From an uncultured virus (IMG/VR IMGVR_UViG_3300036806_000229) (taxonomy: Duplodnaviria; Heunggongvirae; Uroviricota; Caudoviricetes), in IMG/VR virus record IMGVR_UViG_3300036806_000229: a stretch of 64,000 nucleotides of DNA, one strand, 5' to 3'. A program made the translations under genes and the position numbers. Position 1 is the stretch's first letter, and each line of letters begins with the position of its first letter. Shown here one piece after another: positions 4,898 through 21,099 of this stretch. The notes under the pieces are model-generated. The model did not search any database and was not told the DNA's origin. It was given only the letters and a program-made list of their open reading frames with translations.

Positions 4898-4898
4898 G

Positions 4899-5201: not shown

Positions 5202-5560
5202 GAAAGGTACTAGCCTTCGCGATCGCGCTGGGACTATCGCACGGCGCATTGGCTGCAGGCATTTCGACATCCAGCAATCTCACAATTACGGTTACAGGTG
5301 TACCAATCATCGGATTTTCGCCGAACAACCCAATGATATCATGCACACTGGCCGCGGGCACTGTGGTTTCAGCGGTAAGCATAACCGGAGGGGATGGTCA
5401 GCCTATAACGCTTGCGCTGAGCAGTGATACGACAGACTTTGCCTTAAGCGGGACTGCTCCCCCGGCCAACGTCATCGTCGGACCGAACGGCATCACATGT
5501 CCCGTGGCGCCAGCAACGAGCACCACCGATATCGTCACCGTCACGGCGACACAGCCGTAA
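5198..5560 (+). CDS. Exported Ig/cadherin-like small protein
   Basis: Signal peptide ALA-A; beta-strand pattern AGTVVSAVSI...DFAL...VTVTATQ. Confidence 0.6.
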   Translation: MRKVLAFAIALGLSHGALAAGISTSSNLTITVTGVPIIGFSPNNPMISCTLAAGTVVSAVSITGGDGQPITLALSSDTTDFALSGTAPPANVIVGPNGITCPVAPATSTTDIVTVTATQP

Positions 5561-5564
5561 ATAT

Positions 5565-7061
5565 ATGCTCGCGTCTGTCTATACCCGGCCAAAACTCTAT
5601 CCGAAACAGTTATCTGCGATCTTCTGTCCAGAACGCTGGAGTTTCATCGAAGCCAGTACAAAGAGCGGAAAAACGGTCGGATGTATGGCGTGGTTGGTTG
5701 AAAAGGCGTTTGAAGGCAAACCGGGCCAGAACTTCTGGTGGGTTGCTCCGGTGTTTTCACAAGCCGATATTGCCTATCAACGGATAAAGAATGGACTAAC
5801 CCGTGGTTCGTTCACACCACACGGCGGACCGCAGCCGCACATTAGTCTGATCTCTGGTTCAACCATATGGATTAAATCCGGCGACAATCCAGATAGTCTG
5901 TACGGTGAAGACGTTCACGCAGTGACCGTGGACGAGGCCAGTCGAACTAAACCAGAGGTTTACCACGCTGTCCGATCCACCTTAACTGCAACTAGAGGCC
6001 CTGGACGGTTTATTGGCAATGTCAATGGCCGGAAGAACTGGTTCTTTGACCTAGCGCGCCGGGCCGAGAAAGGTGATCTACCTAACGCCCATTATGCAAA
6101 AATCACCTGCGAAGATGCGGTCGAGGCCGGCGTTCTTCGGCAGGAAGAAATCGACGATGCAAGGGCTACGTTGCCGGAGTCAGTCTTTCGTGAATTGTAC
6201 ATGGCCGAAGCCGCTGATGATGGCGGTAATCCATTCGGCCTACATCACATCGCGGCCTGTGCATTTCCGATCTCAAGTCTAAGCCCCGTGGCATGGGGCG
6301 TTGACCTGGCCAAAAAACAAGACTGGACAGTACTGATCGGGTTTGATGAATTTGGTCACGTTTGTCAGTTCCACCGCTGGCAATTTGTCCCTTGGCGCGA
6401 AACCATACGTCGCATCCATCAGATAATTGGGGATGATACGCCGGCCTTAGTTGATTCAACTGGAATTGGTGATCCAGTTCTAGAAGAACTTCAGGTCGAA
6501 CATGGGAACTTTATCGGCTATAATTTCAGTATGAACTCAAAACAAAAACTTATGGAGGGTCTAGCCGTTAGTATCCAGGGCCGCGAAATCACATTCCCCT
6601 CCGGTGTTATTCAACAGGAACTGGAAACCTTTGGATACGAATACACCAGAACCGGGGTAAGGTACACGGCGCCTGAAGGCTATAACGATGACTGTGTCTG
6701 CGCGTTAGCTTTGGCTCGGCAAATGTGGGTTGAGAAAGAGCCCAGTGCGAATGTTGTCCAGTTCTATGCTGAACAAGCAAAATCAAAGCGGCAAAAAGAA
6801 CTGGATCTAAACGCCGTCGACAAGATTGACGGGTATTTGCCACCTGGTGCTGACCGTCGGTTAAAGCAAAACCAAATACCCACCCAAACCCCGTCTTATG
6901 ATCTGGACAACGAACTAACTGCCCTATACAACTCTACCTTTGCGCAGCACGTTGTCAATCATCTCTTCTGTTACCATTGTGGCGAACTGGTCTCCGGGCC
7001 GCATCGAGTATCAGATGGGGAAAACATATGGCATCCCCAATGTACAACTTTGGTAGCTTGA
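5565..7061 (+). CDS. terL: Terminase large subunit
   Basis: Walker A ASTKSGKT, Walker B VTVDEA, RNase H-like GVDLA..D and DDCVCALA. Confidence 0.93.
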   Translation: MLASVYTRPKLYPKQLSAIFCPERWSFIEASTKSGKTVGCMAWLVEKAFEGKPGQNFWWVAPVFSQADIAYQRIKNGLTRGSFTPHGGPQPHISLISGSTIWIKSGDNPDSLYGEDVHAVTVDEASRTKPEVYHAVRSTLTATRGPGRFIGNVNGRKNWFFDLARRAEKGDLPNAHYAKITCEDAVEAGVLRQEEIDDARATLPESVFRELYMAEAADDGGNPFGLHHIAACAFPISSLSPVAWGVDLAKKQDWTVLIGFDEFGHVCQFHRWQFVPWRETIRRIHQIIGDDTPALVDSTGIGDPVLEELQVEHGNFIGYNFSMNSKQKLMEGLAVSIQGREITFPSGVIQQELETFGYEYTRTGVRYTAPEGYNDDCVCALALARQMWVEKEPSANVVQFYAEQAKSKRQKELDLNAVDKIDGYLPPGADRRLKQNQIPTQTPSYDLDNELTALYNSTFAQHVVNHLFCYHCGELVSGPHRVSDGENIWHPQCTTLVA

Positions 7062-7273
7062 AGGAAGGGACGGTGATCATTCTCTGTAAAGTTGACGACA
7101 AGAACGGGATTATCATCGGCTTCGGGCCAGGTGAAAAGGGCGAGCCGAAGGCTATTGTCGCACTTTGTGATTCAAACTATCCCGTCGCCGTGAAACTTGG
7201 CGACTGTCAAATCATTAACATGACAAAGAAGTGGAAAAAGCGCCTGCATGTCCATCATGGAGATGGGGGTTGA
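7058..7273 (+). CDS. Hypothetical protein
   Basis: ORF coupled to the terL stop (TTGA overlap). Confidence 0.5.
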   Translation: MKEGTVIILCKVDDKNGIIIGFGPGEKGEPKAIVALCDSNYPVAVKLGDCQIINMTKKWKKRLHVHHGDGG

Positions 7274-7447
7274 ATGGCAGTTTTGGGCGAGATTTTAACC
7301 GATGTGATCTCGCTTTTAAAATCGCAGGGATTTTCAACGTCGATTGAACTGAAGATCCTATGGACCGGCACGGATAATCTCACGGCGGTTTCATGCCGGC
7401 CTGGAATCATCCGGCATCTTAACCTCACAACCAAGGAACCGATCTTA

Positions 7448-7810
7448 ATGACTACCAACATCTTGAACGACGTGATTTCGGTTGTTCCAGTCGAGTTTGA
7501 CAATCCTGAAGGAACGGCAGTACCAAAGCCAGCTTCGGACACGATCACTGTCACTGGTGACGACCCGTCGGTAACGGTGGCGCTCGATGCAGATGGTTCC
7601 AGTTTCGATATCACGCCGGCACTGCCTGCTGGTACGTCGACTGGGGTTTTGAACGTGACCTACACTGCCACACCATCAGATGGCTCTGCAGCGTTTGGTT
7701 TTACGACCCAGTTCCAGTTTACGGCAGATAAGACCGCCGTATCAGCGCATCCGGTCACTACGGGCATCACAACTCGGCCTCTGCCCGCAGCGCCGCCCGC
7801 AGGTCCGTAA
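7448..7810 (+). CDS. Ig-like beta-sandwich virion protein (start could be 7274)
   Basis: Thr/Val-rich beta pattern; AAGGA RBS before ATG 7448. Confidence 0.55.
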   Translation: MTTNILNDVISVVPVEFDNPEGTAVPKPASDTITVTGDDPSVTVALDADGSSFDITPALPAGTSTGVLNVTYTATPSDGSAAFGFTTQFQFTADKTAVSAHPVTTGITTRPLPAAPPAGP

Positions 7811-7817
7811 GCATTTT

Positions 7818-10361
7818 ATGGATTCAGATTTCAACATCCTCGACGCGCTGAGGGATTATCAGTCCCGATCCCTCCCGCGCAACGGGCATATGTCATTTGA
7901 TGAGTGGAGGGTAGAAACCCAACTGGGCAAATCGCCCAGTAATTCTGGGCGCCAGTCATCATTAGGTCATCTGAATCCAGGAGTCGGTATGCTTGGCCAC
8001 GCGGGGCACACATCCTCGCGTGCGCCAGCGGGACCAAACCAAAGGCCAAGCGGGAACCAAGCCACTGGCTTAAGACAATGGCCGCAGCAGTTTGGCGGCA
8101 TTCCGACCGGGAATGAAGGCCAGGATATTCCCAGCAAGTACAATTCCCAACGGATTCAACAGCCAACGCCCTGGGTCAACGATGTGGACATGGCGAGTAT
8201 TTGGTACTCGCCGATGGAGCCTGTTTGGCCGTTCGGGCCACCCTATTACAACAGACCAAGGGAATGGGATTTTCCCGTTGGTTATAATTTAAACTATATT
8301 CCCCAGCGCCTGCAAAACGTGTCCATGCTACGCGGGATGCGGAAGTCGTGGGGAGTGTTGTCAACTTTGATCGAGACCCGTAAGGATCAGTTGCTTCGCC
8401 TGCCGTGGACAATCCAGATGAAGGATAAGCCCCGGGCGAGCAACAAGCGGGTTGAGGAATGTAGGAAGTTTTTTCGCCGCCCAGATGGGAAGAATTCTTA
8501 CGGCCAGTGGTCCAGACTGTTACTCGACGATCTTTTTGTCATTGATAGCCCGACCATATTTCTGGATCGCATGGCTAGTGGCAAGATTCGGCAAGCTGAA
8601 GTTCTGGACGGTGGGACAATTTTCCCCATAATCGACGACGCGGGACGAAGACCAGATACAATTTACCAGATGAACGATTCCGGCATTGTGTATGAGGAGC
8701 GCCAGCCGGCATTTCAGCAAATCATCTACGGCCTTCCGATGGTGAATATGTCGGAAGATGAATTGATTTATGCCAAAATGCGCCCGTTGCCGGAACTGCC
8801 CGTCTTTGGCTTCAGTCCAGTCGAACAGATCCTGATCGAGGCCACAGAAGCCATACGTAAAACGTTTTATCAGCTAGAATTCTGGCGTTCTGGCTCCATG
8901 CCAGAAATGATCGTCACGGTTCCAGACACGTGGTCACCGAAACAAATCGCCGTTTTCCAGGCCCATTTCGACGCATTGTTATCGGGGCAGTTAAGTCTTA
9001 AATCCAAGGTCCGGTTTTTGCCGGGCGGAATGAAGCCCTTTGATATAAAAAACGCATCTGGCGAAAGCCTCTGGTCTCAGCGAGACGAAACCCTGATCCG
9101 ATTGGCATGTTTTGCCTTTTCTATCCCGCCGACTCCATTTGTTAAACAGGCTAATCGATCCACGGCTCAAAATGCCCAGCAAACTGCACAAGAAGAGGGG
9201 TTATACCCCCTCATGGGCTGGTGGAAAGACGACATCATCGACTGTATTATACAAGAAAAGTTCGGTTATGATGATATTGAGTTCGTTTTTCTGCCCAGGC
9301 CCGAGGTTGATCTTCTCAAACAGTCGCAAATACATCAAATCCAATTGAATGAGGGGATTAGAACCCGGAATGAAGTTCGAGAAGAACTGGGTCAAGAGCC
9401 GTTTGGGCAAGGTGGCGACATCCCAACTATAACCACTGGAGCTGGCGTTATCCCGCTTCATATGGCAGTGGAGGGGCAACAGTTCGCAATAGGCAGTGGA
9501 AGTGTGGGTGGTGATGATAAACCCGCGCCGAAATCCATGCCAAAGCCAAAGCCCGAACCCAATCAACAGGGTCAAAGCCAAAATACACCGCAAAAAGGCA
9601 ACGCCAAGCCGCATTCGGCCACACCTCAGCCGCCGGCGAAGCCCACGTCAGTGCATAAGGTCAGCCATGAAGATGTGAAATCAGCTGCAAAAGAGGCAGA
9701 AAAGAACCCGAAGGGCAATAAAAAACGTGCGGGGAATTATCCAAAGGGGCATATTTGGGTTCAGGGTCTAAATATCTCGATTGAAAATGCCAAGGGATCT
9801 AAGCGCGGCGAGAAGGACAAGTTCGGTCGTGGGCAGGAGGTTAAGATGCCTACTGCCTATGGCTATATCCGTGGCCATTTTGGCGCGGATGGAGACCAGA
9901 TTGATGTCTACATTGGCAAACATCCCGAAAGCCCGAATGTTTGGGTTATTGACCAGGATAAAGTTAATGAAGAGGGTCATGACCAAGGTTTTGACGAACA
10001 CAAGGTCATGTTGGGATATAAAAAACTGAAGCGGGCGGTTAAAGACTACCTTAAATCCCATTTCGACAACCAAGGGCATGAACGGGTTCAATCTGTTACG
10101 TTAATTTCCGTTAAGGATTTCAAGGAATGGTTGAAAAGCGGTGACCTTAAGCGCCCGGTTAGTGAGCAACACGTCGGCCAGGTGGTTCTCCGCCGCGGCG
10201 ATGAAATGTTACAGAAAGCCGGGGATACGATTCAGCAGTCTACGGGGCTGTTGCACTATGACCAGAAGGTTTCGGCGAAAAAGAGAAAGAAGAATAAGAA
10301 GGCGAGACGACAGAAATCTGACCTCGGCCCTCGATGGTTGACCCTTCGTGCCGGGGCCTAA
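7818..10361 (+). CDS. Portal protein fused to a C-terminal InPase (inorganic pyrophosphatase-like) domain
   Basis: Portal motifs GFSPVEQ and GIRTRNEVREELG.EP; after a Pro/Gln/Lys linker, GNYPKGH..ISIEN..YGYIRG..GADGDQIDVY..FDEHKVMLGY. Confidence 0.88.
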   Translation: MDSDFNILDALRDYQSRSLPRNGHMSFDEWRVETQLGKSPSNSGRQSSLGHLNPGVGMLGHAGHTSSRAPAGPNQRPSGNQATGLRQWPQQFGGIPTGNEGQDIPSKYNSQRIQQPTPWVNDVDMASIWYSPMEPVWPFGPPYYNRPREWDFPVGYNLNYIPQRLQNVSMLRGMRKSWGVLSTLIETRKDQLLRLPWTIQMKDKPRASNKRVEECRKFFRRPDGKNSYGQWSRLLLDDLFVIDSPTIFLDRMASGKIRQAEVLDGGTIFPIIDDAGRRPDTIYQMNDSGIVYEERQPAFQQIIYGLPMVNMSEDELIYAKMRPLPELPVFGFSPVEQILIEATEAIRKTFYQLEFWRSGSMPEMIVTVPDTWSPKQIAVFQAHFDALLSGQLSLKSKVRFLPGGMKPFDIKNASGESLWSQRDETLIRLACFAFSIPPTPFVKQANRSTAQNAQQTAQEEGLYPLMGWWKDDIIDCIIQEKFGYDDIEFVFLPRPEVDLLKQSQIHQIQLNEGIRTRNEVREELGQEPFGQGGDIPTITTGAGVIPLHMAVEGQQFAIGSGSVGGDDKPAPKSMPKPKPEPNQQGQSQNTPQKGNAKPHSATPQPPAKPTSVHKVSHEDVKSAAKEAEKNPKGNKKRAGNYPKGHIWVQGLNISIENAKGSKRGEKDKFGRGQEVKMPTAYGYIRGHFGADGDQIDVYIGKHPESPNVWVIDQDKVNEEGHDQGFDEHKVMLGYKKLKRAVKDYLKSHFDNQGHERVQSVTLISVKDFKEWLKSGDLKRPVSEQHVGQVVLRRGDEMLQKAGDTIQQSTGLLHYDQKVSAKKRKKNKKARRQKSDLGPRWLTLRAGA

Positions 10362-10794
10362 TCCGTATCCGCTGGTTAAGATGCAGACTTTTAACCTTGG
10401 CGGGGTGATACAGACGACGATCGGTCCAGTGCCTATCGGCAATGATGGGATATTCTTCGCCCCGGCCAGTGATATCGGCACGCTTCAGGCGATCGGCTGT
10501 ATATTGGTCCAACAACCAGCCGGCGGCAATGGAACAACCCATTACGTTGATCTCGACACCAGCCTCGCGTCACAAACCTATATCCTCCCTTCAGATCCCA
10601 TTGACAACGACGTGTATGTGTTAAAGGATGCGAAGGGTATGATTCAAACAAACCCGGTAACAGTGATCCCGGGCACTGGTGGCGTGTTGATTGACAATGC
10701 CAGTCAGTTCCCAAACCCGCCTAGTGTCTGGATCAATTGGTCCGCGTTCAGTTTCCGTTGGAGCCAGGGTCAAGGTAAATGGTTAGTGCAGTAA
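10348..10794 (+). CDS. Putative virion adaptor or decoration protein (no signal peptide)
   Basis: N-terminal module shared with ORF 15100; C-terminal LP..P..ND....KD module of the T4 gp9/gp10-like type. Confidence 0.5.
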   Translation: MPGPNPYPLVKMQTFNLGGVIQTTIGPVPIGNDGIFFAPASDIGTLQAIGCILVQQPAGGNGTTHYVDLDTSLASQTYILPSDPIDNDVYVLKDAKGMIQTNPVTVIPGTGGVLIDNASQFPNPPSVWINWSAFSFRWSQGQGKWLVQ

Positions 10795-11111
10795 TTTGGT
10801 TCCTGCTTGGCATCACCCCGGCTTTGGCGGGTGAGATGCCATCTGCGTGTTCACCAGATACGCCATACGAAATTTGTATCTTAATCATCCAACGCAACAA
10901 CGCCCTGAATGATGTGGCACACAATGCCGGCCAGCAAGATTTACAAGAAAAGAAATGGAAAGCTGAAGATGAAGCAAAGGCCAAATATTGGAAGAAATAC
11001 ATTGATGGGGAAGAAATCCAACGGCAGGGGTTAGCTCAATACTGGTCCGAATACATCACCGGAATGCAAATCAAAACCGCCCGTGCCGCTGAAGTTGGTA
11101 GGAGACACTAA
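10779..11111 (+). CDS. Exported small coiled-coil protein
   Basis: Signal peptide ALA-G; helical QRNNALND segment; 2 Cys. Confidence 0.55.
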   Translation: MVSAVIWFLLGITPALAGEMPSACSPDTPYEICILIIQRNNALNDVAHNAGQQDLQEKKWKAEDEAKAKYWKKYIDGEEIQRQGLAQYWSEYITGMQIKTARAAEVGRRH

Positions 11112-12059
11112 GTGAAAAGATGGATTGTATTACTTAGTATCTTTGCACTGGTTTGGTCACAAACCGCCAATGCCGCGTATGTACCAACACCAACGTCGGT
11201 AATTGCTGGCGGTACTGGCTTGGCAACTCTTACCGCGCACGGGGTATTGGTAGGAAATGGAACATCAAGTGTGGTATTGGTTGGACCAGGAAGTACTTCC
11301 GGCGTCGCATTGGTTTCCGGTGGTTCTTCAGCCGATCCAAGTTTCACCACCGTCTTGCCAGTAGGCGGTGGTACTGGTTTAGCAACGCTCACTGCCCATA
11401 ATGTAATGTTGGGTGAAGGAACCAGTAACGTTGCCTTCGCCGCGCCAGGTGCAACTACTGGTGTTCCACTCATTTCAAACAACGCCACAACCGACCCGTC
11501 ATTCGGCACCGCGGCGGTGGCCGGTGGTGGTACAGGCGCCACAACCCTTGCCGCAAACGGTGTGCTGGTCGGTGAAGGTACATCTGCCGTTCATGTGGTG
11601 GGAACATCGTCCACAGCCGATTCCGTCGTCGCATGGGCAGCGGCAGGTTCCGATCCTGCGGCCTTGGCCATTGGCTCATGTTCGGCAGCGTCAAACGCCC
11701 TGACATATAGCACTTCATCCCATGTTTTTGGTTGTAACACCATTTCCGCCGGTGCCGCACCGTCTGTTGCCATTGCCGCCACATCTGCGTCAATCACCCT
11801 AGCCTCAACCAATCTTCTAACCACGGTAGTAAACAACACCACCGTTGCTACGGCAACATTGCCCAGCGCCGTGACCGTAGGCACTGGTTTCCGTGGATGC
11901 ATTAAAGATGGAACAGAAGATTTTTCTGCCCATAACGTAACATTGAAGAGTACCGCCGGGACCATTGATGGAATTGCTGCCGCGACAGGAATTGTTATGA
12001 ATATAACCCACCAGGAACTCTGCGCCATATCTGATGGAACTAACTGGTACGTTGAGTGA
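11112..12059 (+). CDS. Exported tail-fibre-like protein
   Basis: Signal peptide ANA-A; three GGTG.ATL.AhgVl.GeGTS fibre-shaft repeats; C-terminal gp10-like module. Confidence 0.7.
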   Translation: MKRWIVLLSIFALVWSQTANAAYVPTPTSVIAGGTGLATLTAHGVLVGNGTSSVVLVGPGSTSGVALVSGGSSADPSFTTVLPVGGGTGLATLTAHNVMLGEGTSNVAFAAPGATTGVPLISNNATTDPSFGTAAVAGGGTGATTLAANGVLVGEGTSAVHVVGTSSTADSVVAWAAAGSDPAALAIGSCSAASNALTYSTSSHVFGCNTISAGAAPSVAIAATSASITLASTNLLTTVVNNTTVATATLPSAVTVGTGFRGCIKDGTEDFSAHNVTLKSTAGTIDGIAAATGIVMNITHQELCAISDGTNWYVE

Positions 12060-12071
12060 TTTGGGCGATGG

Positions 12072-12932
12072 ATGATGCGCCGATGGATATGGGTTGTAAT
12101 CGGTTTATGGTTTGGGTTGTTCATTTCGTCAGTAGGCCAGACTGCATACCGTGATATATTTCAGTATGGCGGCCAAGGCAACGCGGGAGTTGGGATTGTA
12201 CCGTCGGCACTGACGGATGGAAGTTCAATCGCCGTCAATGCGCATTTATCAAACACATTTACATTAACAATTACCGGTACCAGCCACACAATTTCAAACC
12301 CAACAAACGAGGTCACTGGTCAACCAGTTGACTTTATCATTACACAAAATGCCACTGGCGGTTTCAGTCCACTTTGGGACACGCATTTTACATTTCCCGG
12401 CGGTGGCCCGAGTTTAAACACTGCCGCGAATGCGGTAAGTGTAATTTCATGTAAAGTTGCAACTGCAAATGCAGTTGGTGGGATTATTTGTCTAGCCGGT
12501 CCTCAGGCCCAAGGTACTGGGGCGAGTTTTTCGGGCAACCCAGCTGACCCGACAGGCGCGGGGACATCTGGCACCGCAGCCATGATGGGGATGGGTAGCA
12601 CGTGCAAAGTTACGCCAGCAACAACTGGTCGGATTAACTTTACTTTTGACGGAACAGTTGCATCTGCCACTATCGCCGATGGCGGTACGATCGCGTTACG
12701 GTATGGAACGGGAACTGCACCGGCAAATGCAGCCGCAGCTACCGGAACAGTATTGGGTAATAGTCCTCAATACCTGGTTTCGACCACTGCGGCTCGCTAC
12801 CCTTATGCACTTAACCGAGTAGTGACAGGATTAACAGTAGGAACTGCATATTGGTTCGATGTGAGCTTAACACCTAACGCATCGGTTGTGGTAACTATAC
12901 GGGGTAATACATGCACTGCAATGGAGTATTAA
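12072..12932 (+). CDS. Exported fibre/spike-like protein
   Basis: RR + hydrophobic leader; LTDGSSIAV..NPTN..G..FIITQ fibre domain shared with ORF 16141. Confidence 0.6.
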   Translation: MMRRWIWVVIGLWFGLFISSVGQTAYRDIFQYGGQGNAGVGIVPSALTDGSSIAVNAHLSNTFTLTITGTSHTISNPTNEVTGQPVDFIITQNATGGFSPLWDTHFTFPGGGPSLNTAANAVSVISCKVATANAVGGIICLAGPQAQGTGASFSGNPADPTGAGTSGTAAMMGMGSTCKVTPATTGRINFTFDGTVASATIADGGTIALRYGTGTAPANAAAATGTVLGNSPQYLVSTTAARYPYALNRVVTGLTVGTAYWFDVSLTPNASVVVTIRGNTCTAMEY

Positions 12933-12934
12933 AT

Positions 12935-13195
12935 ATGAAGTGGACCTGGGGTTTAATTTTCCTGGCCATGATTAGTACGGTCCATGTGGTTCATGCCCGA
13001 GATATGAAAGCTAAAAATCCGGCCCCAGTCTCCTGTCCCTCAACCCAATCAATGGTTTCCTTTTCCTCCACCCATAAAGGCTGTGTGTTGTACTGGTTAA
13101 GTATAAATGGGGCAACCATAGCCGGGGTCAGGGATCTGAAAACTAACACCATTGTCGAACAGCCGGCGTTGAACCTGCATTATGAAGGTAAGTAA
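12935..13195 (+). CDS. Exported small protein
   Basis: Signal peptide VHA-R; 2 Cys. Confidence 0.55.
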   Translation: MKWTWGLIFLAMISTVHVVHARDMKAKNPAPVSCPSTQSMVSFSSTHKGCVLYWLSINGATIAGVRDLKTNTIVEQPALNLHYEGK

Positions 13196-13196
13196 A

Positions 13197-13652
13197 ATGC
13201 GGAAATGGATCTTAGTCCTCGCGTTAGCTTTGGCATTTCCATTTACATCTCAGGCCGCACCTCCGGCTGCCTGTGGTACAGGTGTTACCAACTGTACGAA
13301 TGACACATCTGCAGATGAACTTTTACGCGCCGCGAGTCTTGATCCTAATTCACAAGCCCGAATTTATGGTCTGTGGGTCGGAGAATGTTTAAGTGTGTTC
13401 AATGAAGATCCAGGAACTGCAAACCATACCTCTCGTGTTCAATACTGCGGCGCGGTAGTTGGGCAAAAAGTTCCTCTAAACATGCTGGTTTGGATTGTAT
13501 TTGCAAGTTCGAATATAAGAAACCAGGTACTAGTTAATTACCCTAACCCATCATCGCCGTTGTTGGGTAATATGGTCGATGTGGACGCGAAAACTGCAAT
13601 TGATTCATCGATTACTGGTTACGGTCTCGCGGGAACATGGCCGGCTCCGTGA
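13197..13652 (+). CDS. Exported protein
   Basis: Signal peptide MRKWILVLALALAFPFTSQA-A; 4 Cys. Confidence 0.65.
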   Translation: MRKWILVLALALAFPFTSQAAPPAACGTGVTNCTNDTSADELLRAASLDPNSQARIYGLWVGECLSVFNEDPGTANHTSRVQYCGAVVGQKVPLNMLVWIVFASSNIRNQVLVNYPNPSSPLLGNMVDVDAKTAIDSSITGYGLAGTWPAP

Positions 13653-14200
13653 GAAAGTTTACTGCATATTTAATTGGATTGTTGCTACTATCCCGGCCAG
13701 TTTATGCAGATTGTTTATACGACCCAACATATCCATTAGTTTCTACTACCAGCCTTTTTGCTGCTGCAGATTTATCCAGTCTCGGTGCAAACGCGTGTAA
13801 ATTATCCACCGGCGGAACAAGTGGTGTATTTACAGTCAGTACCGTTACTGGTTACGCACTTTTCGGCCGAATTGCATTTAAAGTCATCACGACAGGATTT
13901 ACCCCATCTGCAGGGCAGAATTTATCTATCTGGCTCCTTCGTTCATTCGACGGGTCGACTTATGAACAAAACTACGTATCATCATGCGGATCTACTCAGG
14001 GTCCAGTTCAACGTGCCCCGGATTTTGTTATCCCACTACCGCCGGTTGCTTTGGCTGCTAACGACCTTCTCTGGTCTTATCCAGGTTTAGTCCCTGAAGG
14101 GCAGACATTTAAAGTCGTGCTTTGGAATAATGGAACTACGGCATTGACCGCGGCCAATCACACCGTGACTTTGGGCGTTTCGGCAGTGAAATGTCAATAA
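13637..14200 (+). CDS. Exported jelly-roll-like virion protein
   Basis: Signal peptide VYA-D; WLLRSFDGSTYE and FKVVLWNNG beta pattern seen in phage spike-base-like proteins. Confidence 0.55.
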   Translation: MAGSVRKFTAYLIGLLLLSRPVYADCLYDPTYPLVSTTSLFAAADLSSLGANACKLSTGGTSGVFTVSTVTGYALFGRIAFKVITTGFTPSAGQNLSIWLLRSFDGSTYEQNYVSSCGSTQGPVQRAPDFVIPLPPVALAANDLLWSYPGLVPEGQTFKVVLWNNGTTALTAANHTVTLGVSAVKCQ

Positions 14201-15084
14201 GGGCGCTATTTGGGGCTGTAATTTGGCTTCTGTATAGCGGTTCTGGCTATGCACAGCAAATTCCCACAAATCAACCCAACTGGGCTTTTACAGGCTGTTC
14301 ACCCCGGGTTAATTACTCAAATCCATTAACTCAAGGATTAAGCGCTTTATGGGTTACGATTGGTGGTTTACAGTATGAACTGATAAGCAATACATACGGA
14401 ATATATACTTCACAGGGACCGATAACTGGACCTTATGGTCAAACTACCCCATTTGGATCATCGAATATACTTTTTACCCATGCTTCTGTACCGCAAATTA
14501 ATAATTCCAATGGGTTAAGTGTTTTTTTCTTAGGCAATCCCGCGTCAAGCGCCTCTAATATTAGTTTCGCGGTTGTGGTTGGATTTGGTACTGGAGCAGA
14601 CCCAAATATGGGTTTGGTAATGAATGCGGATGAAACCTTTAGTGCTTCAGCCCACTCGTTTCTAATTTATAACGTAGATTCGTTGTCTAATATTTTTACT
14701 GCAGCCACAGACGGAAATGGTGGGGTAGATGGTGAATGGCATGTATTTATAGCCACGATACAAGGGTCCAATACCACTGGTTATCAAATATATGTAGATA
14801 ACAAAAATCTAGGCATAACCGTAGGATCTACAACTGGCCCGTGGACCAGTTATTCTGGAAACACTCTAAGCATTGGCGCAAATATAGACGGGACTAATAG
14901 TCTTACAGGTGGATCTATAGCAATGGTCGGAGCGTATAATCGAATACTTTCTCCAAATGATCGGGCAAGTTTGACTGTAAATCCCTATCAATTGATCAGC
15001 TGTCCAGTTCCAGATCAATTGTTAACTATGATGGGGAACTGGTTTCTAACCCAAGGCGGTTCATTCATCTTCAAACCGTTCTAA
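14191..15084 (+). CDS. Exported concanavalin A / LamG-like lectin domain protein
   Basis: Signal peptide GYA-Q; GEWHVFIATI..YQIYVD..LSIGA..GSIAMVGAYNRILS LamG-like motifs. Confidence 0.75.
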   Translation: MSIRALFGAVIWLLYSGSGYAQQIPTNQPNWAFTGCSPRVNYSNPLTQGLSALWVTIGGLQYELISNTYGIYTSQGPITGPYGQTTPFGSSNILFTHASVPQINNSNGLSVFFLGNPASSASNISFAVVVGFGTGADPNMGLVMNADETFSASAHSFLIYNVDSLSNIFTAATDGNGGVDGEWHVFIATIQGSNTTGYQIYVDNKNLGITVGSTTGPWTSYSGNTLSIGANIDGTNSLTGGSIAMVGAYNRILSPNDRASLTVNPYQLISCPVPDQLLTMMGNWFLTQGGSFIFKPF

Positions 15085-15099
15085 AAGGAAGAGGACTAC

Positions 15100-15795
15100 A
15101 TGGCACAACCAGTACAGACCGTTCAACTTGCAACCAACGGGTTGAGCGGAGTGATTCAAGGACTGTTTGGAACCTACGTTCCACTAGCCGATGGGACGAT
15201 TCAAGCCGATTCCAGAGATGTAATTGACTTGATCCGGGCGGGAATGACATATGTGAACAAAGTCACCCGAACGATGTCATTTTCCATTGCTCCAGCTACA
15301 GCCTCGGCCACAGTTTACGTCGCCAACGTCGCGGCGACAAACGTAGCACTGACCATCGCCGCGCAACCGGATGTGGTCCGGCCGTTTCAGGCAGTCTTTG
15401 CCCCTGGTGCAGCAGCAGTCACCGCTGGCACACTTACGGTGGTGTATACCGGAAACGACGGTATTACCCACACGGATGTGTTCTCGCTCGTTACCGGCTC
15501 CGGCGTCAGTCTTACCCCTAACTCGTCCAAAGCCTGCGCCCATATTACCTCTGCCACCATCGCCGGAATCGCAGGCGGCTCGTCGCCAACGATTCAGATC
15601 GGCTCAACTGCTGCCTTGGGTCTGGTTTGCGATCCTGGGTTCCAGGGCTTCGCAGTCCAGAAAGAAAATGATGGAAGCGGCAATGCGACAGTTGGAACCG
15701 TTAACGCGGGACAAGGCGCTATTGCCCCGACTGCGGCTCCTAACGCGACGCGGACATATGAGTTTACTTACAGTTATATCGCGCCGGGTGTGTAA
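15100..15795 (+). CDS. Putative head decoration or adaptor protein (no signal peptide)
   Basis: Strong RBS; Ala/Thr-rich beta protein; N-terminal module shared with ORF 10348. Confidence 0.55.
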   Translation: MAQPVQTVQLATNGLSGVIQGLFGTYVPLADGTIQADSRDVIDLIRAGMTYVNKVTRTMSFSIAPATASATVYVANVAATNVALTIAAQPDVVRPFQAVFAPGAAAVTAGTLTVVYTGNDGITHTDVFSLVTGSGVSLTPNSSKACAHITSATIAGIAGGSSPTIQIGSTAALGLVCDPGFQGFAVQKENDGSGNATVGTVNAGQGAIAPTAAPNATRTYEFTYSYIAPGV

Positions 15796-15796
15796 T

Positions 15797-16144
15797 ATGA
15801 ACTGGGTTATAAGCGCCCTAGGGGCGCTTATGATTTGTCTGGGGTTTAATGCCCAGGCTCAAATTTCTATTTCCCGCCCATTGATCGTGGTTCCATCCAC
15901 TATTGGCGCGTCTCCCGTCACAGTTGACCAGGCTCGTCAGCGTGTGTATTTGGCAATGTTGAATCTTGATGGGGCCAATACAGTCGGTTGTACGTTTGAT
16001 GGCTCGACGCCAGTAGTAGGCGCCGCTGGGACGATGACATTCTTACCACATCAGGGTTATGTCTGGGACTCTGGCGTAATTCCGTCTAATATTCTCATCT
16101 GCATCGCCTCTGGCTCCAACACTGCATTTACGGTTCTTGAATGA
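15797..16144 (+). CDS. Exported small beta protein (paralog of 35190..35699)
   Basis: Signal peptide AQA-Q; R....LN.....V..TF pattern. Confidence 0.6.
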   Translation: MNWVISALGALMICLGFNAQAQISISRPLIVVPSTIGASPVTVDQARQRVYLAMLNLDGANTVGCTFDGSTPVVGAAGTMTFLPHQGYVWDSGVIPSNILICIASGSNTAFTVLE

Positions 16145-18600
16145 AAAAGATTTATGCGGTCCTCGGGCTTTTCCTTGGGCTGTGTATTAGTCATGTGGCG
16201 TGGGCAGGTGGGCCAGTAAACCCGCCGCCATGCTTTGTTGGCTCGATTCCGACCGGGAATTATCTTAAATACGCCGGTGGTGGTTGTGCCCAGGATGGCG
16301 GCACGGGAACCGGAGCAGCCACTCCAGGTGGTACAACTGGCCAAATACAACAAAACCGGCCACTTGGAACCTTTGCCCCGACAGCCTTAACTGACACCGG
16401 TACGACGATTACGTCATCTGAGCCATTGGCCGGGACTTGGAATTTTACTGGTACATTTCAGATTGGCGGCGTGACGATTACGTATCCAGCAAGTGGTGTA
16501 TTACTTGGGTCAACTGATACCCAGACCGTATCGGGTAAGAGCTTTAGCTGTTCAGCTAACACCTGCACCAATATTCCAAACTCGGCCCTTGTTAACCAGG
16601 GCTTAACTCTTGGTTCAACAAGCGGGATCAATCTCGGCTCAACAACTTCTTCCATTGCTGGGTTAACCCTTACCGCATCGCCCATCCTTGCATTGCGTGA
16701 CGCTAGTGCTGCATTTGACGTCAGCTTAGTTGCTACGTCCTCTGCAACACTTACAGGAGGCAGAGTAGTCACATTTGACGTGGTGAATGGAAGCCGGACA
16801 TTTAAACTTGGATCGAACCTTACCGTTGCAACAGACCCAGGTGCTGTAACTGGGGCTCTTAAGGCAAACGGCACGGGAACATTTACCCAAGCCGCCTGTG
16901 GCGATTTATCTAATTCTGGAAGTGGATGTGCAGGAACGCTGCCAACTGGCGCAAATCCATCCGCGACTATTGGAGCGGCAGCAACTAACGGCTCGGCCAC
17001 TACGTTCTTACGCTCGGACTCTGCGCCGGCCATCGGTTCCAATGCCGTTACAAACGCCCTTCTAGCTCAAGCAGCATCGAAAACCCTGAAGGGCAATTTA
17101 TCCGGTGTCACTGCCAATGTAAGCGACATATCCGCGCCAGATTGTCCTGACACTGGAGGGCAGCATTGGAACTCGTCCGGTGGTGTAATTATCTGTGGAA
17201 CTAGTGGCGGCGGCTCTGGTACGCCGATTATATTTGAAGGCGCAGCGACTGGTACGAATACTTATACCGTTTCATCGTTAACGCCAGGAAGTGGTTTTGC
17301 GTATACAGATGGTTATATTCTCCGTTTACGGTTTGCGAATGGAAATACATCTGGAGCTACAATCAATGCGCTGACCCTGGGCGCGATACCGATTAATAAA
17401 CAAACACTTAGTGGGCTGGCAGCACTAACCGGCAGTGAGATTCAAGCGGCGAATACGCAATATGATTTGGTGTATAATGCTGCTGCCGGTGTGTTTGTTA
17501 TGACTACGATAATCCCTGGCACTGCCGCGTTCCAAAACATCAGCACCAGTGGTGCGAATGTAGGTTTGTTAAGCACAGTAAATACATTTAGTAAGAAACA
17601 GTTTATTACCCCAGTAACATTAACCGATTCCTCGTCGATTGCAGTTGACCCTACATTATCAAATCAGTACTATTGGACCATTGGAACCAGTGGCAACTGC
17701 CTTGCCAATCCATCTCCCACACTTACGGGTAACGATACTACAGTTTTTTACATAATCCAAGGCGGCAGTGGAAATAACATCCCTTGTGCATCTGGTTGGC
17801 CGACGGCATACCACTGGGCAGATGGGTCGGTATGTACGCCAGGAGTTACATATCCGTGTTGGTCAACGGCAGTAGGCGCCGAAGACCGGATTGTATGTAA
17901 TGTTCCACTAGGGCAGACGTACTGGGATTGTAGCCATCCACAAATTTCCTTTGCCTTGCCAGCATGGTCGTTGTATGCAAATCATGCGATTAGCACGGTG
18001 GCCGGAAGTGGCGGCTCGACTACTGTAACCGTGGCAATAGCCAATACGGTTGCTGGTGCATTCCGTACAGTTGAGTTTGGGTTCTGTGGCAATTCAGGAT
18101 GTACTGGAGCAACGGCGTCTCCGACATCTGTAACAGATGGTACGACAGCGTGTACACATGAATCCGGTACATTGGTAAGTGTTGCTGCATATGCAACGGA
18201 TATTTGGAAATGTTCAAATGTGCAGAACGCCGGAACCATTACTGGCACATGGGCATCACCCGTATTTTACGGTGTCGCAGCAGCTCAGGAATGGAAAAAT
18301 GCCGCGGCGACAGTTTCAGCTGGCCTTGGAAATATAAACAGTGGAAATCCCGTAACTTCACTATCCGTATCGTCTAGTGGATCAGTATCCCAGATCGGCG
18401 CATTGGTTTTATCGGCTATACTTAATTCCGGTACGGCGGGGCAAACAAGTGGTCAAACATCTATTGACCAATCAGCTGGCAACGGGATTGAATTAGGCAT
18501 TGCATACCAGCTTCCATCTTCTACGGGAACCAAAACCAACAGCGCGACGTTTGGGAGTAGCTATGGCGTCGGTTCAATTGCGGTGTTTAATCATCAATGA
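16141..18600 (+). CDS. Large exported tail-fibre-like protein (819 aa)
   Basis: Signal peptide AWA-G; Gly/Ser/Thr-rich fibre segments (NGSATTFLRSD, AVTNALLAQ); 18 Cys in the mature chain. Confidence 0.75.
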   Translation: MKKIYAVLGLFLGLCISHVAWAGGPVNPPPCFVGSIPTGNYLKYAGGGCAQDGGTGTGAATPGGTTGQIQQNRPLGTFAPTALTDTGTTITSSEPLAGTWNFTGTFQIGGVTITYPASGVLLGSTDTQTVSGKSFSCSANTCTNIPNSALVNQGLTLGSTSGINLGSTTSSIAGLTLTASPILALRDASAAFDVSLVATSSATLTGGRVVTFDVVNGSRTFKLGSNLTVATDPGAVTGALKANGTGTFTQAACGDLSNSGSGCAGTLPTGANPSATIGAAATNGSATTFLRSDSAPAIGSNAVTNALLAQAASKTLKGNLSGVTANVSDISAPDCPDTGGQHWNSSGGVIICGTSGGGSGTPIIFEGAATGTNTYTVSSLTPGSGFAYTDGYILRLRFANGNTSGATINALTLGAIPINKQTLSGLAALTGSEIQAANTQYDLVYNAAAGVFVMTTIIPGTAAFQNISTSGANVGLLSTVNTFSKKQFITPVTLTDSSSIAVDPTLSNQYYWTIGTSGNCLANPSPTLTGNDTTVFYIIQGGSGNNIPCASGWPTAYHWADGSVCTPGVTYPCWSTAVGAEDRIVCNVPLGQTYWDCSHPQISFALPAWSLYANHAISTVAGSGGSTTVTVAIANTVAGAFRTVEFGFCGNSGCTGATASPTSVTDGTTACTHESGTLVSVAAYATDIWKCSNVQNAGTITGTWASPVFYGVAAAQEWKNAAATVSAGLGNINSGNPVTSLSVSSSGSVSQIGALVLSAILNSGTAGQTSGQTSIDQSAGNGIELGIAYQLPSSTGTKTNSATFGSSYGVGSIAVFNHQ

Positions 18601-19664
18601 TCCGGGTCATTCTACTTTCCCTGTTCACATGGTTAAGTCTAACTACCCACGCGTCAGCTCAATTCTCTGACCTTCTAATCGGCGAGCAAAGCCGGAAAGT
18701 TGTTGTTGCAACACCACCACCGCCGCCAGGCGGCATATGTTCAACAACTCCTACGACTGCAGTTGCTCTAGGCATGACGCAGCAGATCTACTGCGCCGAC
18801 TTTTCTTTAAGTTCATACAGTACCCAAGCGTCCCCAGGTTATTTTAATCTAACAAACGGCTGGTTTGGATGCAACGGCGATACCAATCAACATGAATGGT
18901 ATCAGACCTATATTTACGTTCACTCTGGTGGGCCGTTCCCACCATGCTCCAATTTCTCCCCCGGAACCGCTGATCCATCTACCGGAACAACGACACTCAA
19001 GATTCACTGGAATGCGGCGGACTGCCCAAGCAGTTGCAACAGTCAAGCAAACGCCAATACCAATGCGATGCAAAATGGTTTGTGGGGCGGCAATGACGGC
19101 GGTTCTGGCTTTTGGTCCATGCCGACCAATTACTACTACAGCATTAAGTGGCGCGTATCAAGCGCTGTGTCTGGTTCGTACAACGCCGCAGATACCGTGG
19201 GGCTTGCGACATATTTGTTTGATGTTAACAGCCTACACTCAGGGAGCTTTACCTCCAACGAGTTAGACCCGGCGAATTGGCAGGCGGACAACAACCCATG
19301 CTGCAATCAGTATGGATTTGTGAACAATTGGGGAAACGGCAGCGATCCGGACCAGACAATTTACGCCTCGGGGAGCCCTGACATGGTGGCGGCACCGCAT
19401 ACGTTCGCCATCACGATCCGCAATAATGGGTCTTCGGGAGGAAGCAACGGGACGGCTTGCGAGTTTATCGACGATTCTCAGGTAGGGTCATGCATTGGGA
19501 TCAAGCCGACGACTGATCAGGGAAACAACTATCGCGGTATTGCCATTCATTCGATGGGGAACCTTCCGAGATCGTGGGATATGTATATCTACAGTATCCA
19601 AGTGTTCACTCGAGCTGGGTGTGCGTGGCAGAGCAATCCATGTTTAGGTTCAGCATCTCCGTAA
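18597..19664 (+). CDS. Exported ConA/GH16-like carbohydrate-binding protein
   Basis: Signal peptide ASA-Q; poly-Pro linker; NELD and HTFAI..FID..G GH16-like pattern; 12 Cys. Confidence 0.55.
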   Translation: MIRVILLSLFTWLSLTTHASAQFSDLLIGEQSRKVVVATPPPPPGGICSTTPTTAVALGMTQQIYCADFSLSSYSTQASPGYFNLTNGWFGCNGDTNQHEWYQTYIYVHSGGPFPPCSNFSPGTADPSTGTTTLKIHWNAADCPSSCNSQANANTNAMQNGLWGGNDGGSGFWSMPTNYYYSIKWRVSSAVSGSYNAADTVGLATYLFDVNSLHSGSFTSNELDPANWQADNNPCCNQYGFVNNWGNGSDPDQTIYASGSPDMVAAPHTFAITIRNNGSSGGSNGTACEFIDDSQVGSCIGIKPTTDQGNNYRGIAIHSMGNLPRSWDMYIYSIQVFTRAGCAWQSNPCLGSASP

Positions 19665-19673
19665 CGAGTTTCT

Positions 19674-20156
19674 ATGACAGTATTAACTCGATTTAAAGAC
19701 CTCTGGTCTCATGTGAAAGCATTTATTGATCGGCCAAGAGGCGGCCTGGAAGTTGAGATGGTTTACGCTGGAATTGAACTGTGTGTAGCAGTGTTGATAT
19801 TAATCAATGGACAGGAAATATTGGACACACCTTCGTTCCAGATATTTTATTGGAAATTGAGTTATGTCTATGTTGGAATTGCATGGTTAGTGTCTGCTGT
19901 ATTAACATATTTTGGTTTAATTCTTTTCTGGACACGGCATAAACTCTGTGCAGTTTTCCGTTTTCTTGGGGCTCTTTTTTCGGCCACGGTTTGGTTTTGG
20001 GTTTTATGGAACGTAACTACGACTTACGACCGGATGACTACAGCAATTATAACTGGTGTATCGGTTTTTGGGATCATATGGCAATATCGAATCATGATTT
20101 CAGCCTTGAGCCGCCAGCGACGGTATTGGATAGAATGGCATGTCAGTACCGATTGA
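19674..20156 (+). CDS. Membrane protein, about 4 TM
   Basis: Four hydrophobic segments. Confidence 0.7.
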   Translation: MTVLTRFKDLWSHVKAFIDRPRGGLEVEMVYAGIELCVAVLILINGQEILDTPSFQIFYWKLSYVYVGIAWLVSAVLTYFGLILFWTRHKLCAVFRFLGALFSATVWFWVLWNVTTTYDRMTTAIITGVSVFGIIWQYRIMISALSRQRRYWIEWHVSTD

Positions 20157-20571
20157 GGGTGCAGGTTCGGCACCTTGGTGGTTTTCGTTTATTGTATCTG
20201 CCGTAGTATCAGCAGTGTTGGGGTTATTAAGTGCCTTGTATGTTAAGAAATCTGATTGGCGGCGGGAAGACCATAAAACAGTTTCGGCAGCAGAGCTGGC
20301 ATTACCTAGTCAGATGAGTGAAGCATATAAAGGGCTGGTTGAGGATTTAAGTAAACAGTTAGCTGATCAAATAGAAAGCGGTAACAAACTGTGGATTGAG
20401 TTTCGTAAAATGCAGCAGGCATTGGTTGATGCCGAAAACAAACATCGAGAGTGTGAAACACGGGTGTTGAGACTTGAGTCGGAAAATAAGACACAAAGCC
20501 GTAGAATATCCGCCTTAGAAACTCGACAGCAAATTATTCGCCCGGATACTGATTATATAAAAGGAGGCTGA
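20140..20571 (+). CDS. TM-anchored coiled-coil protein (lysis-associated?)
   Basis: N-terminal TM then a long heptad coiled coil; between two membrane genes. Confidence 0.6.
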   Translation: MSVPIEGAGSAPWWFSFIVSAVVSAVLGLLSALYVKKSDWRREDHKTVSAAELALPSQMSEAYKGLVEDLSKQLADQIESGNKLWIEFRKMQQALVDAENKHRECETRVLRLESENKTQSRRISALETRQQIIRPDTDYIKGG

Positions 20572-20573
20572 AT

Positions 20574-20840
20574 TTGAATTCAGATACAGTAAGAACATGG
20601 GGGCAGTTGAGTTTATGTGTCTTGACCGGGATTATTTTCTGTGTAGGATTTACTGCCGCGTGGTTATCTAAAGACCAATCAAATCTTGGATTGTTCTACG
20701 GTGCAATAATCGCGTTGTTTACTCAGGTTGTTAATTACTTCATCGGCTCGTCAGCAAGTTCACAAAAAAAGGATGATATTATTGCGAATAGAGAAGTTCC
20801 AAACCCAACCCCAACCCCGCCTTCAACCCCAAATCCTTAG
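20574..20840 (+). CDS. Holin-like protein
   Basis: Two TM helices followed by YFIGSSASSQKKD, a C-terminal motif common in phage holins. Confidence 0.6.
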   Translation: MNSDTVRTWGQLSLCVLTGIIFCVGFTAAWLSKDQSNLGLFYGAIIALFTQVVNYFIGSSASSQKKDDIIANREVPNPTPTPPSTPNP

Positions 20841-20852
20841 GAGAAGTTTAAC

Positions 20853-21062
20853 ATGTCACTACCGTGGACCAAAACAGTAAGCGGCATCACCACAACCTAT
20901 ACCATTACCGATCAATCCGGCAGTTCGCTGGCTTTGGCGGTGCAAACCGGCGTGACAGGAAATATAATCACATCCACGACGCAAAGTGGCAACTTTCATC
21001 AGGACGGAATGGATAATCTCATGATCCTGATGCAGTTGGTCGGCACGGGTTTACTCCCGTAA
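20853..21062 (+). CDS. Hypothetical protein
   Basis: AGGAG RBS; fills the operon gap. Confidence 0.6.
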   Translation: MSLPWTKTVSGITTTYTITDQSGSSLALAVQTGVTGNIITSTTQSGNFHQDGMDNLMILMQLVGTGLLP

Positions 21063-21099
21063 GAAAAATCAGGTCTACGGTGTAGAAAGGATACATATC

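Follow-up and report, generated by a model that had tools for sequence, protein, structure and literature searches.

Leader-bearing genes in the late operon

We analysed a 64,000-nt stretch of DNA, hereafter the window, from the uncultured Caudoviricetes virus IMGVR_UViG_3300036806_000229. The window contains 92 open reading frames (ORFs) and covers the greater part of the genome of this phage, a siphophage whose tail is of the RcGTA type. A long late operon extends on the + strand from about 3.3 kb to 41.1 kb, and the replication and nucleotide-metabolism genes lie on the minus strand from 41.1 kb onward. Between the portal gene and the membrane-protein and protease genes, the late operon holds a block of 12 + strand genes, most of which encode proteins with a Sec-type leader. 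Genes are named here by their lower coordinate in the window.

Leaders were called with a custom heuristic, not with SignalP, which scores the hydropathy of the h-region, the charge of the n-region and the -3/-1 rule, with a threshold of 2.8. By this measure 22 of the 92 ORFs are positive, namely 21 predicted exported proteins and 20574, a probable two-helix membrane protein. The block genes start at 10348, 10779, 11112, 12072, 12935, 13197, 13637, 14191, 15100, 15797, 16141 and 18597. The original prediction that ten of these 12 carry leaders of the Sec/signal peptidase I (SPase I) type was borne out. In the ten, 11-14 uncharged residues form a hydrophobic core, the cut site is of the small-x-small kind, and all except 10779 have a basic n-region; examples are MKRWIVLLSIFALVWSQTANA/AY and MRKWILVLALALAFPFTSQA/AP, where the slash marks the predicted cut. 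Only 10348 and 15100 are leaderless. The block and its borders are as follows (aa, amino acids; Cys, cysteine; E, E-value; AF2, AlphaFold2):

7680-10361, + strand: portal with C-terminal InPase domain, no leader (PF04860, PF18823; 54-61% identity in relatives); left border of the block
10348-10794, + strand: 148-aa protein with no leader; the N-terminal module of the 15100 family is present at residues 7-56
10779-11111, + strand: small leader protein by the heuristic, 93 aa mature, 2 Cys
11112-12059, + strand: leader-bearing fibre-like protein, 4 Cys, three repeats of about 53 aa (GGTG...G.GTS)
12072-12932, + strand: leader protein, 4 Cys; residues 42-129 resemble residues 489-588 of 16141
12935-13195, + strand: small leader protein, 2 Cys
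13197-13652, + strand: leader protein, 4 Cys; sole leader gene with a family homologue (one locus, 37% identity)
13637-14200, + strand: leader protein, 4 Cys
14191-15084, + strand: leader-bearing protein with LamG/concanavalin-like lectin fold, 2 Cys (PF13385, E 2e-7)
15100-15795, + strand: leaderless 231-aa protein with a beta-sandwich middle domain, conserved in the family (homologues in 16 loci; AF2 pLDDT 84.7)
15797-16144, + strand: small leader protein, 2 Cys mature
16141-18600, + strand: leader-bearing 819-aa fibre, 18 Cys, with the repeat RDxSAAFD...NLT.A.DPG
18597-19664, + strand: leader-bearing 355-aa protein, 12 Cys, possible GH16/polysaccharide-lyase jelly roll (a lead only)
19674-20840, + strand: three membrane proteins of 160, 143 and 88 aa, resembling holins or inner spanins only in their topology; right border of the block
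20853-21062, + strand: small leaderless protein conserved in relatives

The GGTG module of 11112 was also found in P0004, a leader-bearing homologue of 16141, and the modules are therefore shuffled. The repeat of 16141 is about 76 residues long, and its alignment (A2, 76 columns) identified 52 viral loci. These contain 50 complete fibre ORFs, of which 43 are leaderless ordinary tail fibres and seven carry a leader. All-against-all BLASTP among the window proteins gave a single match among leader proteins, that of 12072 with 16141, and detected no tip domain shared by leader-bearing and leaderless proteins. Lectin domains of the LamG and GH16 kind had been proposed for the block. The LamG assignment holds for 14191, whereas the GH16-like fold of 18597 is only a lead. 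The latter has no Pfam match and belongs to a rare family, with six matches among 1.84 billion representatives. Structure rows of the Atlas gave it TM scores of 0.45-0.58 to GH16 and PL14 clusters, and its AF2 model, built from a 7-row alignment, reached a pLDDT of only 46.

Leaders also occur outside the block, as the original prediction had noted for 4232, 5198 and four genes after the tape measure gene. These were recovered, and 3340 and four minus-strand genes were added to them. The genes concerned, with two leaderless neighbours, are:

3340-3708, + strand: lipoprotein-type leader (MNKMNKIFPIVLCPFFLSG/C) and Pro-rich tail, possible outer-membrane spanin; absent from relatives
3705-4223, + strand: SLT lytic transglycosylase of endolysin type, no leader (PF01464, E 1.5e-18)
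4232-4897, + strand: leader protein, possible lipobox LSAC, 6 Cys mature
5198-5560, + strand: leader protein, 2 Cys
32690-34528, + strand: leader-bearing 612-aa fibre/spike-like protein, 6 Cys, directly 3' of the tape measure gene
34539-34778, + strand: small leader protein, 60 aa mature, no Cys
34775-35203, + strand: leaderless 142-aa coiled-coil-like protein within the tail island
35190-35699, + strand: leader protein, 4 Cys
35690-37057, + strand: leader-bearing fibre with C-terminal S74 intramolecular chaperone, 4 Cys (PF13884, E 1.4e-9)
56176-57639, - strand: leader-bearing protein with a right-handed beta-helix (PF13229, E 4e-5, weak and below the Pfam cut-off), 12 Cys; not part of the structural operon
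57768-58073 and 58127-58492, - strand: two small leader proteins, 6 and 2 Cys
60702-61184, - strand: leader protein, 2 Cys

Residues 302-464 of 32690 share 37% identity with the tail fibre of the Burkholderia phages Bcep1 and BcepNY3. The S74 domain of 35690 spans residues 365-420 and scores 38.5 bits against a Pfam cut-off of 22 bits. Its motif, SSLRFK at residue 365, keeps the Ser-Lys spacing of SDxxxK with Ser in place of Asp. The mature chain of 35690 opens directly with shaft-type repeats and gave no match to the N-terminal module of 10348 and 15100. The strongest terminator-like hairpin of the region (3114-3145, a 13-bp stem followed by a T run) lies just 5' of the 3340 island and is a probable marker for the beginning of the late transcription unit.

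Probable export and oxidative folding

The leader calls were compared with those in other phage sequences. In lambda, four of 76 ORFs were positive (Lom, Bor, Rz and RexB, all true envelope proteins), in Brevundimonas phage Strzyga two of 67, and in 76 loci of the phage family described below 42 of 1082 (3.9%). The excess in the window has a Fisher p-value of 2e-10, and its leader genes total 16.2 kb, or 25% of the DNA. The heuristic found no leader on the portal, protease, capsid, adaptor, tube, tape measure, DUF2460, hub and tail-tip proteins, in agreement with the earlier observation that the portal, capsid, tube, tape measure, Dit, hub and tip proteins lack one.

Most of the starts that include the leader are preceded by a GGAG/AGGAG/AAGG-type motif at a distance of 3-12 nt or overlap the preceding stop codon. 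These starts are thus plausible, which argues against true starts downstream of the leaders. The lipobox pattern [LVI][ASTVI][GAS]C is present in 3340 (LSG/C) and possibly in 4232 (LSA/C); 32690 has an imperfect lipobox (ILS/C) that reads better as an SPase I site. A C-terminal sorting helix is absent from all leader proteins of the window. After nine of the 22 predicted cuts the mature chain starts with Gln, against a Gln background of 4.1%, and the same residue stands at the mature N-terminus of most leader-bearing homologues that were read. This suggests an N-terminal pyroglutamate.

Cysteines tend to be paired in proteins that fold in the periplasm. The count after the predicted cut is even in all 19 leader proteins with Cys, and three others have none. 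Among the 70 leaderless window proteins, 26 have an even and 32 an odd number, and 12 lack Cys. The probability of obtaining 19 even counts out of 19 by chance is 2e-6 or less.

The same features were found among homologues. Nine of ten database homologues of 16141 carry a leader, and all nine have an even Cys count, ranging from 8 to 22. Among distinct fibre ORFs with the 16141 repeat, taken from viral loci and metagenome-assembled genomes (MAGs), the eight with a leader all have an even count and contain 0.91% Cys, compared with 0.27% in the 36 without a leader, 15 of which have none. With both sets taken together, the count is even in 17 of 17 leader-bearing 16141 homologues. For 35690, leaders were found in 13 of 16 homologues, of which ten have even and three odd Cys counts, and for 18597 in all four full-length homologues (by reading). 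Thus, leaders recur on homologous fibres, a check that had been proposed for the export claim, and they do so without conservation of the leader sequence. We conclude that the leader proteins of the window are very probably exported and folded oxidatively, as the original prediction had it.

Comparison with the phage family and with other phages

The comparative set consisted of 76 uncultured viral loci whose capsid protein is 57-80% identical to that of the window. In addition to the portal, the following core genes serve as landmarks:

5565-7061, + strand: large terminase, in the late operon
21100-23208, + strand: prohead protease/scaffold, no leader (PF04586; homologues in 60 loci)
23227-24900, + strand: capsid protein, followed by adaptor, neck and tube genes
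29627-32686, + strand: tape measure protein, no leader; directly followed by the Dit gene in relatives
37058-37684, + strand: DUF2460 protein in the Dit position, no leader; RcGTA-type tail tip
after 37684 and up to 41104, + strand: BR0599 hub, NlpC/P60 and Phage-tail_3/Rcc01698_C genes; RcGTA-type tail tip

The InPase domain of the portal protein (PF18823) matched with an E-value of 1.3e-38, and PHROG matches place this domain in large virion-borne proteins.

The particle genes have homologues in the family: the portal in 28 of the 76 loci, the protease in 60, the capsid in 76, the adaptor in 54, the tube in 46, the tape measure in 17 and the DUF2460 protein in 10. By contrast, of the 21 leader genes only 13197 has a homologue in the 76 loci, and the other 20 have none. 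The only genes of the block region conserved in the family are the leaderless 15100 and the small 20853. The distance from portal to protease gene, 10.7 kb in the window, is 0.2-7.3 kb in 26 relatives, and only one of the 64 other genes in these gaps has a leader. The tape measure and DUF2460 genes, which are 168-190 bp apart in six relatives, are separated in the window by 4.4 kb and five genes. In a relative whose portal is 54% identical, TPR, DUF4422, DUF5672 and methyltransferase genes plus one lipoprotein gene occupy the portal-to-protease gap. At L003:7579-10859, and also in L002 and L005, the TPR/DUF4422/DUF5672/methyltransferase genes, which are of a cytoplasmic, sugar-modifying type, replace the leader genes. 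In three relatives the DUF2460 homologue is split into ORFs of 60-90 aa on both strands (L084:20650-21400, L102:17700-18400, L095:20660-20950), which could reflect frameshifts, sequencing errors or a recoded stop.

The two leaderless block proteins, 10348 and 15100, have a 50-residue N-terminal module in common (hhalign probability 91%, E 9e-7; hidden Markov model (HMM) E 2e-10). Its HMM matches only these two among the 92 window proteins, and 22 family loci. Each of them heads the same pattern of genes, a leaderless N-module protein, a small leader protein and a large leader fibre (10348/10779/11112 and 15100/15797/16141). With the AF2 model of 15100, Foldseek against the PDB gave no match at E 0.001 or better and only generic beta-sandwich matches, the best Z score in VIA was 7.8, within the stated background of the tool, and matches in BFVD were uncharacterised phage proteins only. 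We infer that 10348 and 15100 are probably the particle-bound proteins of the portal-to-protease gap, and that the leader proteins do not appear to use their docking module.

The leader genes, about 21 of about 92, lie in five strain-specific islands, three of them within the late operon. At 12001-20000 and 32001-34000 the GC content is 0.475-0.503, compared with about 0.51-0.53 in the core, and the AT skew is negative, compared with positive in the flanking core; this is in line with a foreign origin. Three independently assembled contigs, 99.87-99.98% identical, span the core-island junctions (4384-14128, 20043-33610 and 34109-42390), and the arrangement is therefore not an assembly artefact. 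Consensus scans counted 27 promoter-like sites with 22.1 expected and 25 with 20.1 expected, and 25 terminator-like sites with 20.6 expected and 24 with 16.9 expected. These scans gave no sites of either kind flanking the islands and no excess around them.

Relatives carry other exported cargo at other sites. In L091:11680-16255, four consecutive leader genes (201-459 aa) lie between the capsid and adaptor genes, a site unlike those of the window, and one of them has a weak LamG match (E 3.6e-4, below the Pfam cut-off). In L089:14001-15615, from a phage of the same capsid family (70% identity), and also in L090, two adjacent leader genes with a PEP-CTERM signal lie between adaptor and neck genes. 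The signals (VNEPSS... and VPEPGS..., each followed by a helix and RRR) score 22.1 and 28.8 bits against a cut-off of 20.7 bits. PEP-CTERM signals, which belong to the exosortase system, direct proteins to the cell envelope, and the two proteins are predicted to be phage-encoded exosortase substrates.

The block had originally been described as a virion appendage system inside the head operon. In this form the proposal is not supported by the family comparison, since the leader genes lack family homologues apart from 13197, the gap is short and almost free of leader genes in the 26 relatives, the tape measure abuts the Dit gene in six, and only leaderless genes are conserved, with an N-terminal module that the leader proteins do not have. 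Taken together, the sequences indicate that the leader genes are an accessory, horizontally shuffled set outside the conserved particle of the phage family.

Leader-bearing, Cys-paired fibres occur within the structural modules of unrelated phages. In L013 such a fibre, which has an S74 domain, follows Baseplate_J and a leaderless fibre; in L050 it follows the tape measure, Dit and Tal genes; in L057 it lies between capsid and tail genes; in L055 and L062 it stands beside terminase and protease; and in L065, a Rhizobiales MAG, it follows a baseplate-wedge gene. Leaderless homologues have a distinct N-terminal region where the window proteins have the leader. Large contigs of 230-250 kb, presumably chromosomal, commonly encode S74 proteins with a leader as well (6 of 10 ORFs examined), and three of the four negatives are short fragments. 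Two such contigs, L151 and L152 (252 and 233 kb), encode leader-bearing proteins that end in S74.

In tblastn against cultured phages, 16141 and 11112 had no match, and 32690 and 35690 had single-domain matches only. A PDB sequence search returned no matches for 32690, 16141 and 56176, and the NCBIfam and PADLOC defence/exclusion profiles returned none for 27 window proteins. Scans of viral contigs for relatives of the islands (DUF2460, Phage-tail_3 and P0029) gave the phage itself or nothing, and metagenome contigs gave no match to 18597 and only distant S74 domains for 35690. Two Brevundimonas phages have a capsid protein 36% identical to that of the window. The nearest relatives of the modules are labelled Rhizobium, Rhizobiales and Bradyrhizobium MAGs, and the host is probably a diderm of this kind.

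Site of action and relation to known systems

The reading that we favour, giving it an even chance of being right, is that most leader proteins work off the particle, on the surface polysaccharide or receptor of the host. About 21 proteins carry predicted cleavable Sec leaders, one or two being lipoproteins, and very probably pass through the inner membrane, shed the leader and acquire disulfide bonds as they fold in the periplasm. There the fibre-type proteins would trimerise, 35690 presumably by means of its own C-terminal S74 chaperone. Their modules, among them the repeats of phage fibres, a LamG lectin, a beta-helix and what may be a jelly-roll glycanase or lyase, would serve recognition of the host surface. 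Whether within the periplasm, at the envelope or released by lysis, the proteins may bind or cut the surface polysaccharide or receptor. With the receptor masked or destroyed on the doomed cell and the matrix loosened, progeny would not be lost on debris and superinfection would be blocked, and the disulfides would lend stability outside the cell.

We favour this off-particle action because the leader genes, apart from 13197, lack homologues in a family that conserves the particle genes, and because the corresponding gaps of relatives are short or filled with other genes. It is also favoured by the lower GC content and reversed AT skew of the block, by the absence of the 10348/15100 module from the leader proteins, by the distinct N-terminal region that leaderless homologues carry in place of the leader, and by the position of four leader genes outside the structural operon. 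Finally, relatives carry other exported cargo elsewhere, including PEP-CTERM proteins, and leader-bearing S74 proteins are common on cellular contigs; the mosaic adhesive trimer (MAT) fibres of Bdellovibrio are reported to be displayed on the surface. An exported accessory surface toolkit thus accounts for this block better than a virion appendage system, which is unproven and less likely. The secreted or host-surface structure that the original prediction offered as its alternative is at least as likely as docking onto virions, which is a possibility for the fibre-type members.

Several observations weigh against off-particle action. Within the late structural operon the leader genes are tightly spaced, their starts overlapping or abutting, as particle genes look, and two islands occupy classical appendage positions, one of them directly after the tape measure gene. 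Their modules are those of real tail fibres, and leader fibres stand at receptor-binding-protein positions in L013, L050 and the Rhizobiales MAG. In the cultured Cellulophaga phage phi18:3, three of 12 proteins annotated as structural from tandem mass spectrometry (MS/MS) carry leaders. The enzyme, receptor and exclusion roles are proposals drawn from sequence, and the leader calls come from a custom heuristic instead of SignalP. The operon position, the fibre modules, the positions in other phages and the phi18:3 annotation also speak for assembly in two compartments, an explanation that we hold to be a real but lesser possibility. Here 11112, 12072, 16141, 32690 and 35690 would be true appendages, with the small proteins perhaps as connectors; they would fold and be oxidised in the periplasm and dock once the holin opens the inner membrane, before or at rupture of the outer membrane. 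Such docking would be physically possible by analogy with the lysis sequence of lambda, in which periplasm and cytoplasm mix between these two events. Stated more broadly, and with the same reserve, several tailed-phage lineages including this one may build host-recognition fibres in a second compartment, where these, once exported by Sec, are oxidised by the disulfide machinery of the host periplasm and trimerise, and join the particle only in the seconds from holin firing to outer-membrane rupture. Translational coupling within the structural operon, the fibre repeats held in common with leaderless tail fibres, the S74 chaperone and the gene pattern that occurs twice all agree with this. The leader proteins, however, have no conserved partner evident in the 76 family loci, where apart from 13197 they have no homologues, and they carry neither the 10348/15100 module nor the N-terminal regions of leaderless homologues. 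A module that would anchor them was not detected, though no library of anchor domains was searched. Many of them are small or of lectin or enzyme type, four of their genes lie outside the late operon, the exported cargo of relatives includes envelope-aimed PEP-CTERM proteins, and the cellular look-alikes are surface adhesins. The evidence from phi18:3 is an annotation line of the record.

Two further explanations appear much less probable. The leader genes might be morons, which a temperate phage would express as a prophage in order to convert the surface of its host (by adhesins or exclusion), as lambda does with lom and bor. Lom and Bor are indeed encoded by leader or lipoprotein genes beside tail and lysis genes, the insertion sites vary among relatives, and the base composition of the islands differs from that of the core. 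We nevertheless consider this improbable: no integrase or repressor was found among the 74 window proteins scanned, the window being less than the whole genome; around the islands, promoter- and terminator-like sites were not in excess in the consensus scans; the leader genes overlap their structural neighbours; and a set of 21 genes making up 25% of the DNA is far above the scale of known morons. The other explanation, to which we assign the lowest probability of all, holds that the hydrophobic N-termini are not export signals but wrong starts, uncleaved anchors or particle-internal helices, and that the proteins are cytoplasmic. The heuristic origin of the calls, the missing basic n-region of 10779 and the probable membrane protein 20574 among the positives would fit it. 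Against it stand the Cys counts, whose evenness in 19 of 19 proteins appears only if counting starts after the predicted cut, the recurrence of leaders in homologues without sequence conservation, the ribosome-binding-site-type motifs or stop-start overlaps at the leader-including starts, and the identity of the lambda calls as real envelope proteins.

Textbook tailed phages make all parts of their particles in the cytoplasm, and their few exported proteins are lysis or exclusion factors. Signal-arrest-release (SAR) endolysins, spanins and the coat proteins of filamentous phages, which are inserted by Sec/YidC, use the host Sec machinery, some with functional disulfides. The lysis proteins differ from the present set in that they are not fibres. 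Filamentous phages resemble it in that particles are assembled from exported proteins, but assembly takes place at the membrane and there is no cytoplasmic capsid. Llp of T5 and the Cor exclusion lipoproteins mask the phage's own receptor. Lambda lom and bor are Sec-exported envelope-protein genes beside tail and lysis genes, like those of the window. However, lom, bor, llp and cor amount to one or two small non-fibre genes per phage, and lom and bor are prophage-expressed, whereas here about 21 genes, many of them large and with fibre modules, are found in an apparently virulent phage. Leaderless fibres (those of 43 of the 50 RDxSAAFD loci, of Bcep1 and BcepNY3, and S74-ending ones of Synechococcus, Vibrio and Streptomyces phages) have the shaft repeats, a spike-like middle domain and the S74 chaperone in common with the window proteins. 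They differ by the N-terminal region in place of the leader and by their lower Cys content.

The closest phage parallel is phi18:3 (NC_021794), in which gp085-087 are adjacent, large proteins with Sec-type leaders (heuristic scores 2.9-4.0). Its record annotates them as structural/tail proteins 'based on experimental MS/MS proteomics analysis' and does not mention the leaders; the other nine proteins annotated in this way have none. The likeness is that a cultured tailed phage has proteins which combine a leader with a structural annotation. The difference is that phi18:3 is a podovirus of a Bacteroidota host with only three such genes and few Cys (0, 1 and 3).

A cellular parallel is provided by the MAT fibres of Bdellovibrio bacteriovorus. 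These are reported to have a signal peptide, a trimeric shaft like that of phage tail fibres and swappable tips, with a conserved domain, rich in beta structure and about 130 aa long, directly after the signal peptide, and 13 of 21 end in an autoproteolytic S74 chaperone with an SDxxxK motif (PMC10769870). They are exported, as predicted for the fibres of the window, and displayed outside the cytoplasm, and those 13 end, like 35690, in an S74 domain. Unlike the window proteins, they are encoded by genes of a cellular predator and not of a phage, and they have no lectin or small-protein companions. Together with the leader-bearing S74 proteins on presumably chromosomal contigs, this suggests that MAT-like exported fibres may be widespread in bacteria. 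Full-text literature searches found no paper on signal peptides on the tail fibres of tailed phages, in agreement with the original remark that no system of this scale had been described; in a paper on phiCbK, the matches concerned lysis genes only.

What is new is the set of about 21 predicted exported proteins of fibre, lectin and glycan-enzyme type in a tailed phage, while exported lysis proteins, Lom, Bor, Llp and Cor, and bacterial MAT fibres were known. A quarter of the phage DNA is committed to such proteins with paired Cys, and the design recurs in unrelated uncultured phages and prophages. If docking is true, tailed-phage assembly has an unrecognised periplasmic branch, not described for Caudoviricetes; host Sec and Dsb functions would become determinants of infection, and receptor-binding proteins for applied use would need periplasmic production. 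If the proteins act off the particle, they make up a new and large class of effectors that phages secrete to act on the surface of the host, which bears on avoiding loss on debris, on escape from the biofilm matrix and on the exclusion of rivals. Either outcome is new biology and directly testable, and the plain label of tail fibre given by gene callers and annotators misses it in both cases.

Beyond the late operon, a minus-strand cluster at 45629-53602 encodes a dCMP deaminase, a dATP/dGTP diphosphohydrolase N-domain (PF18909), a protein of the uracil-DNA glycosylase (UDG) superfamily, a ParB-methylase, ThyX and a family A DNA polymerase. This set of nucleotide-metabolism genes suggests that the DNA of the phage may contain modified bases.

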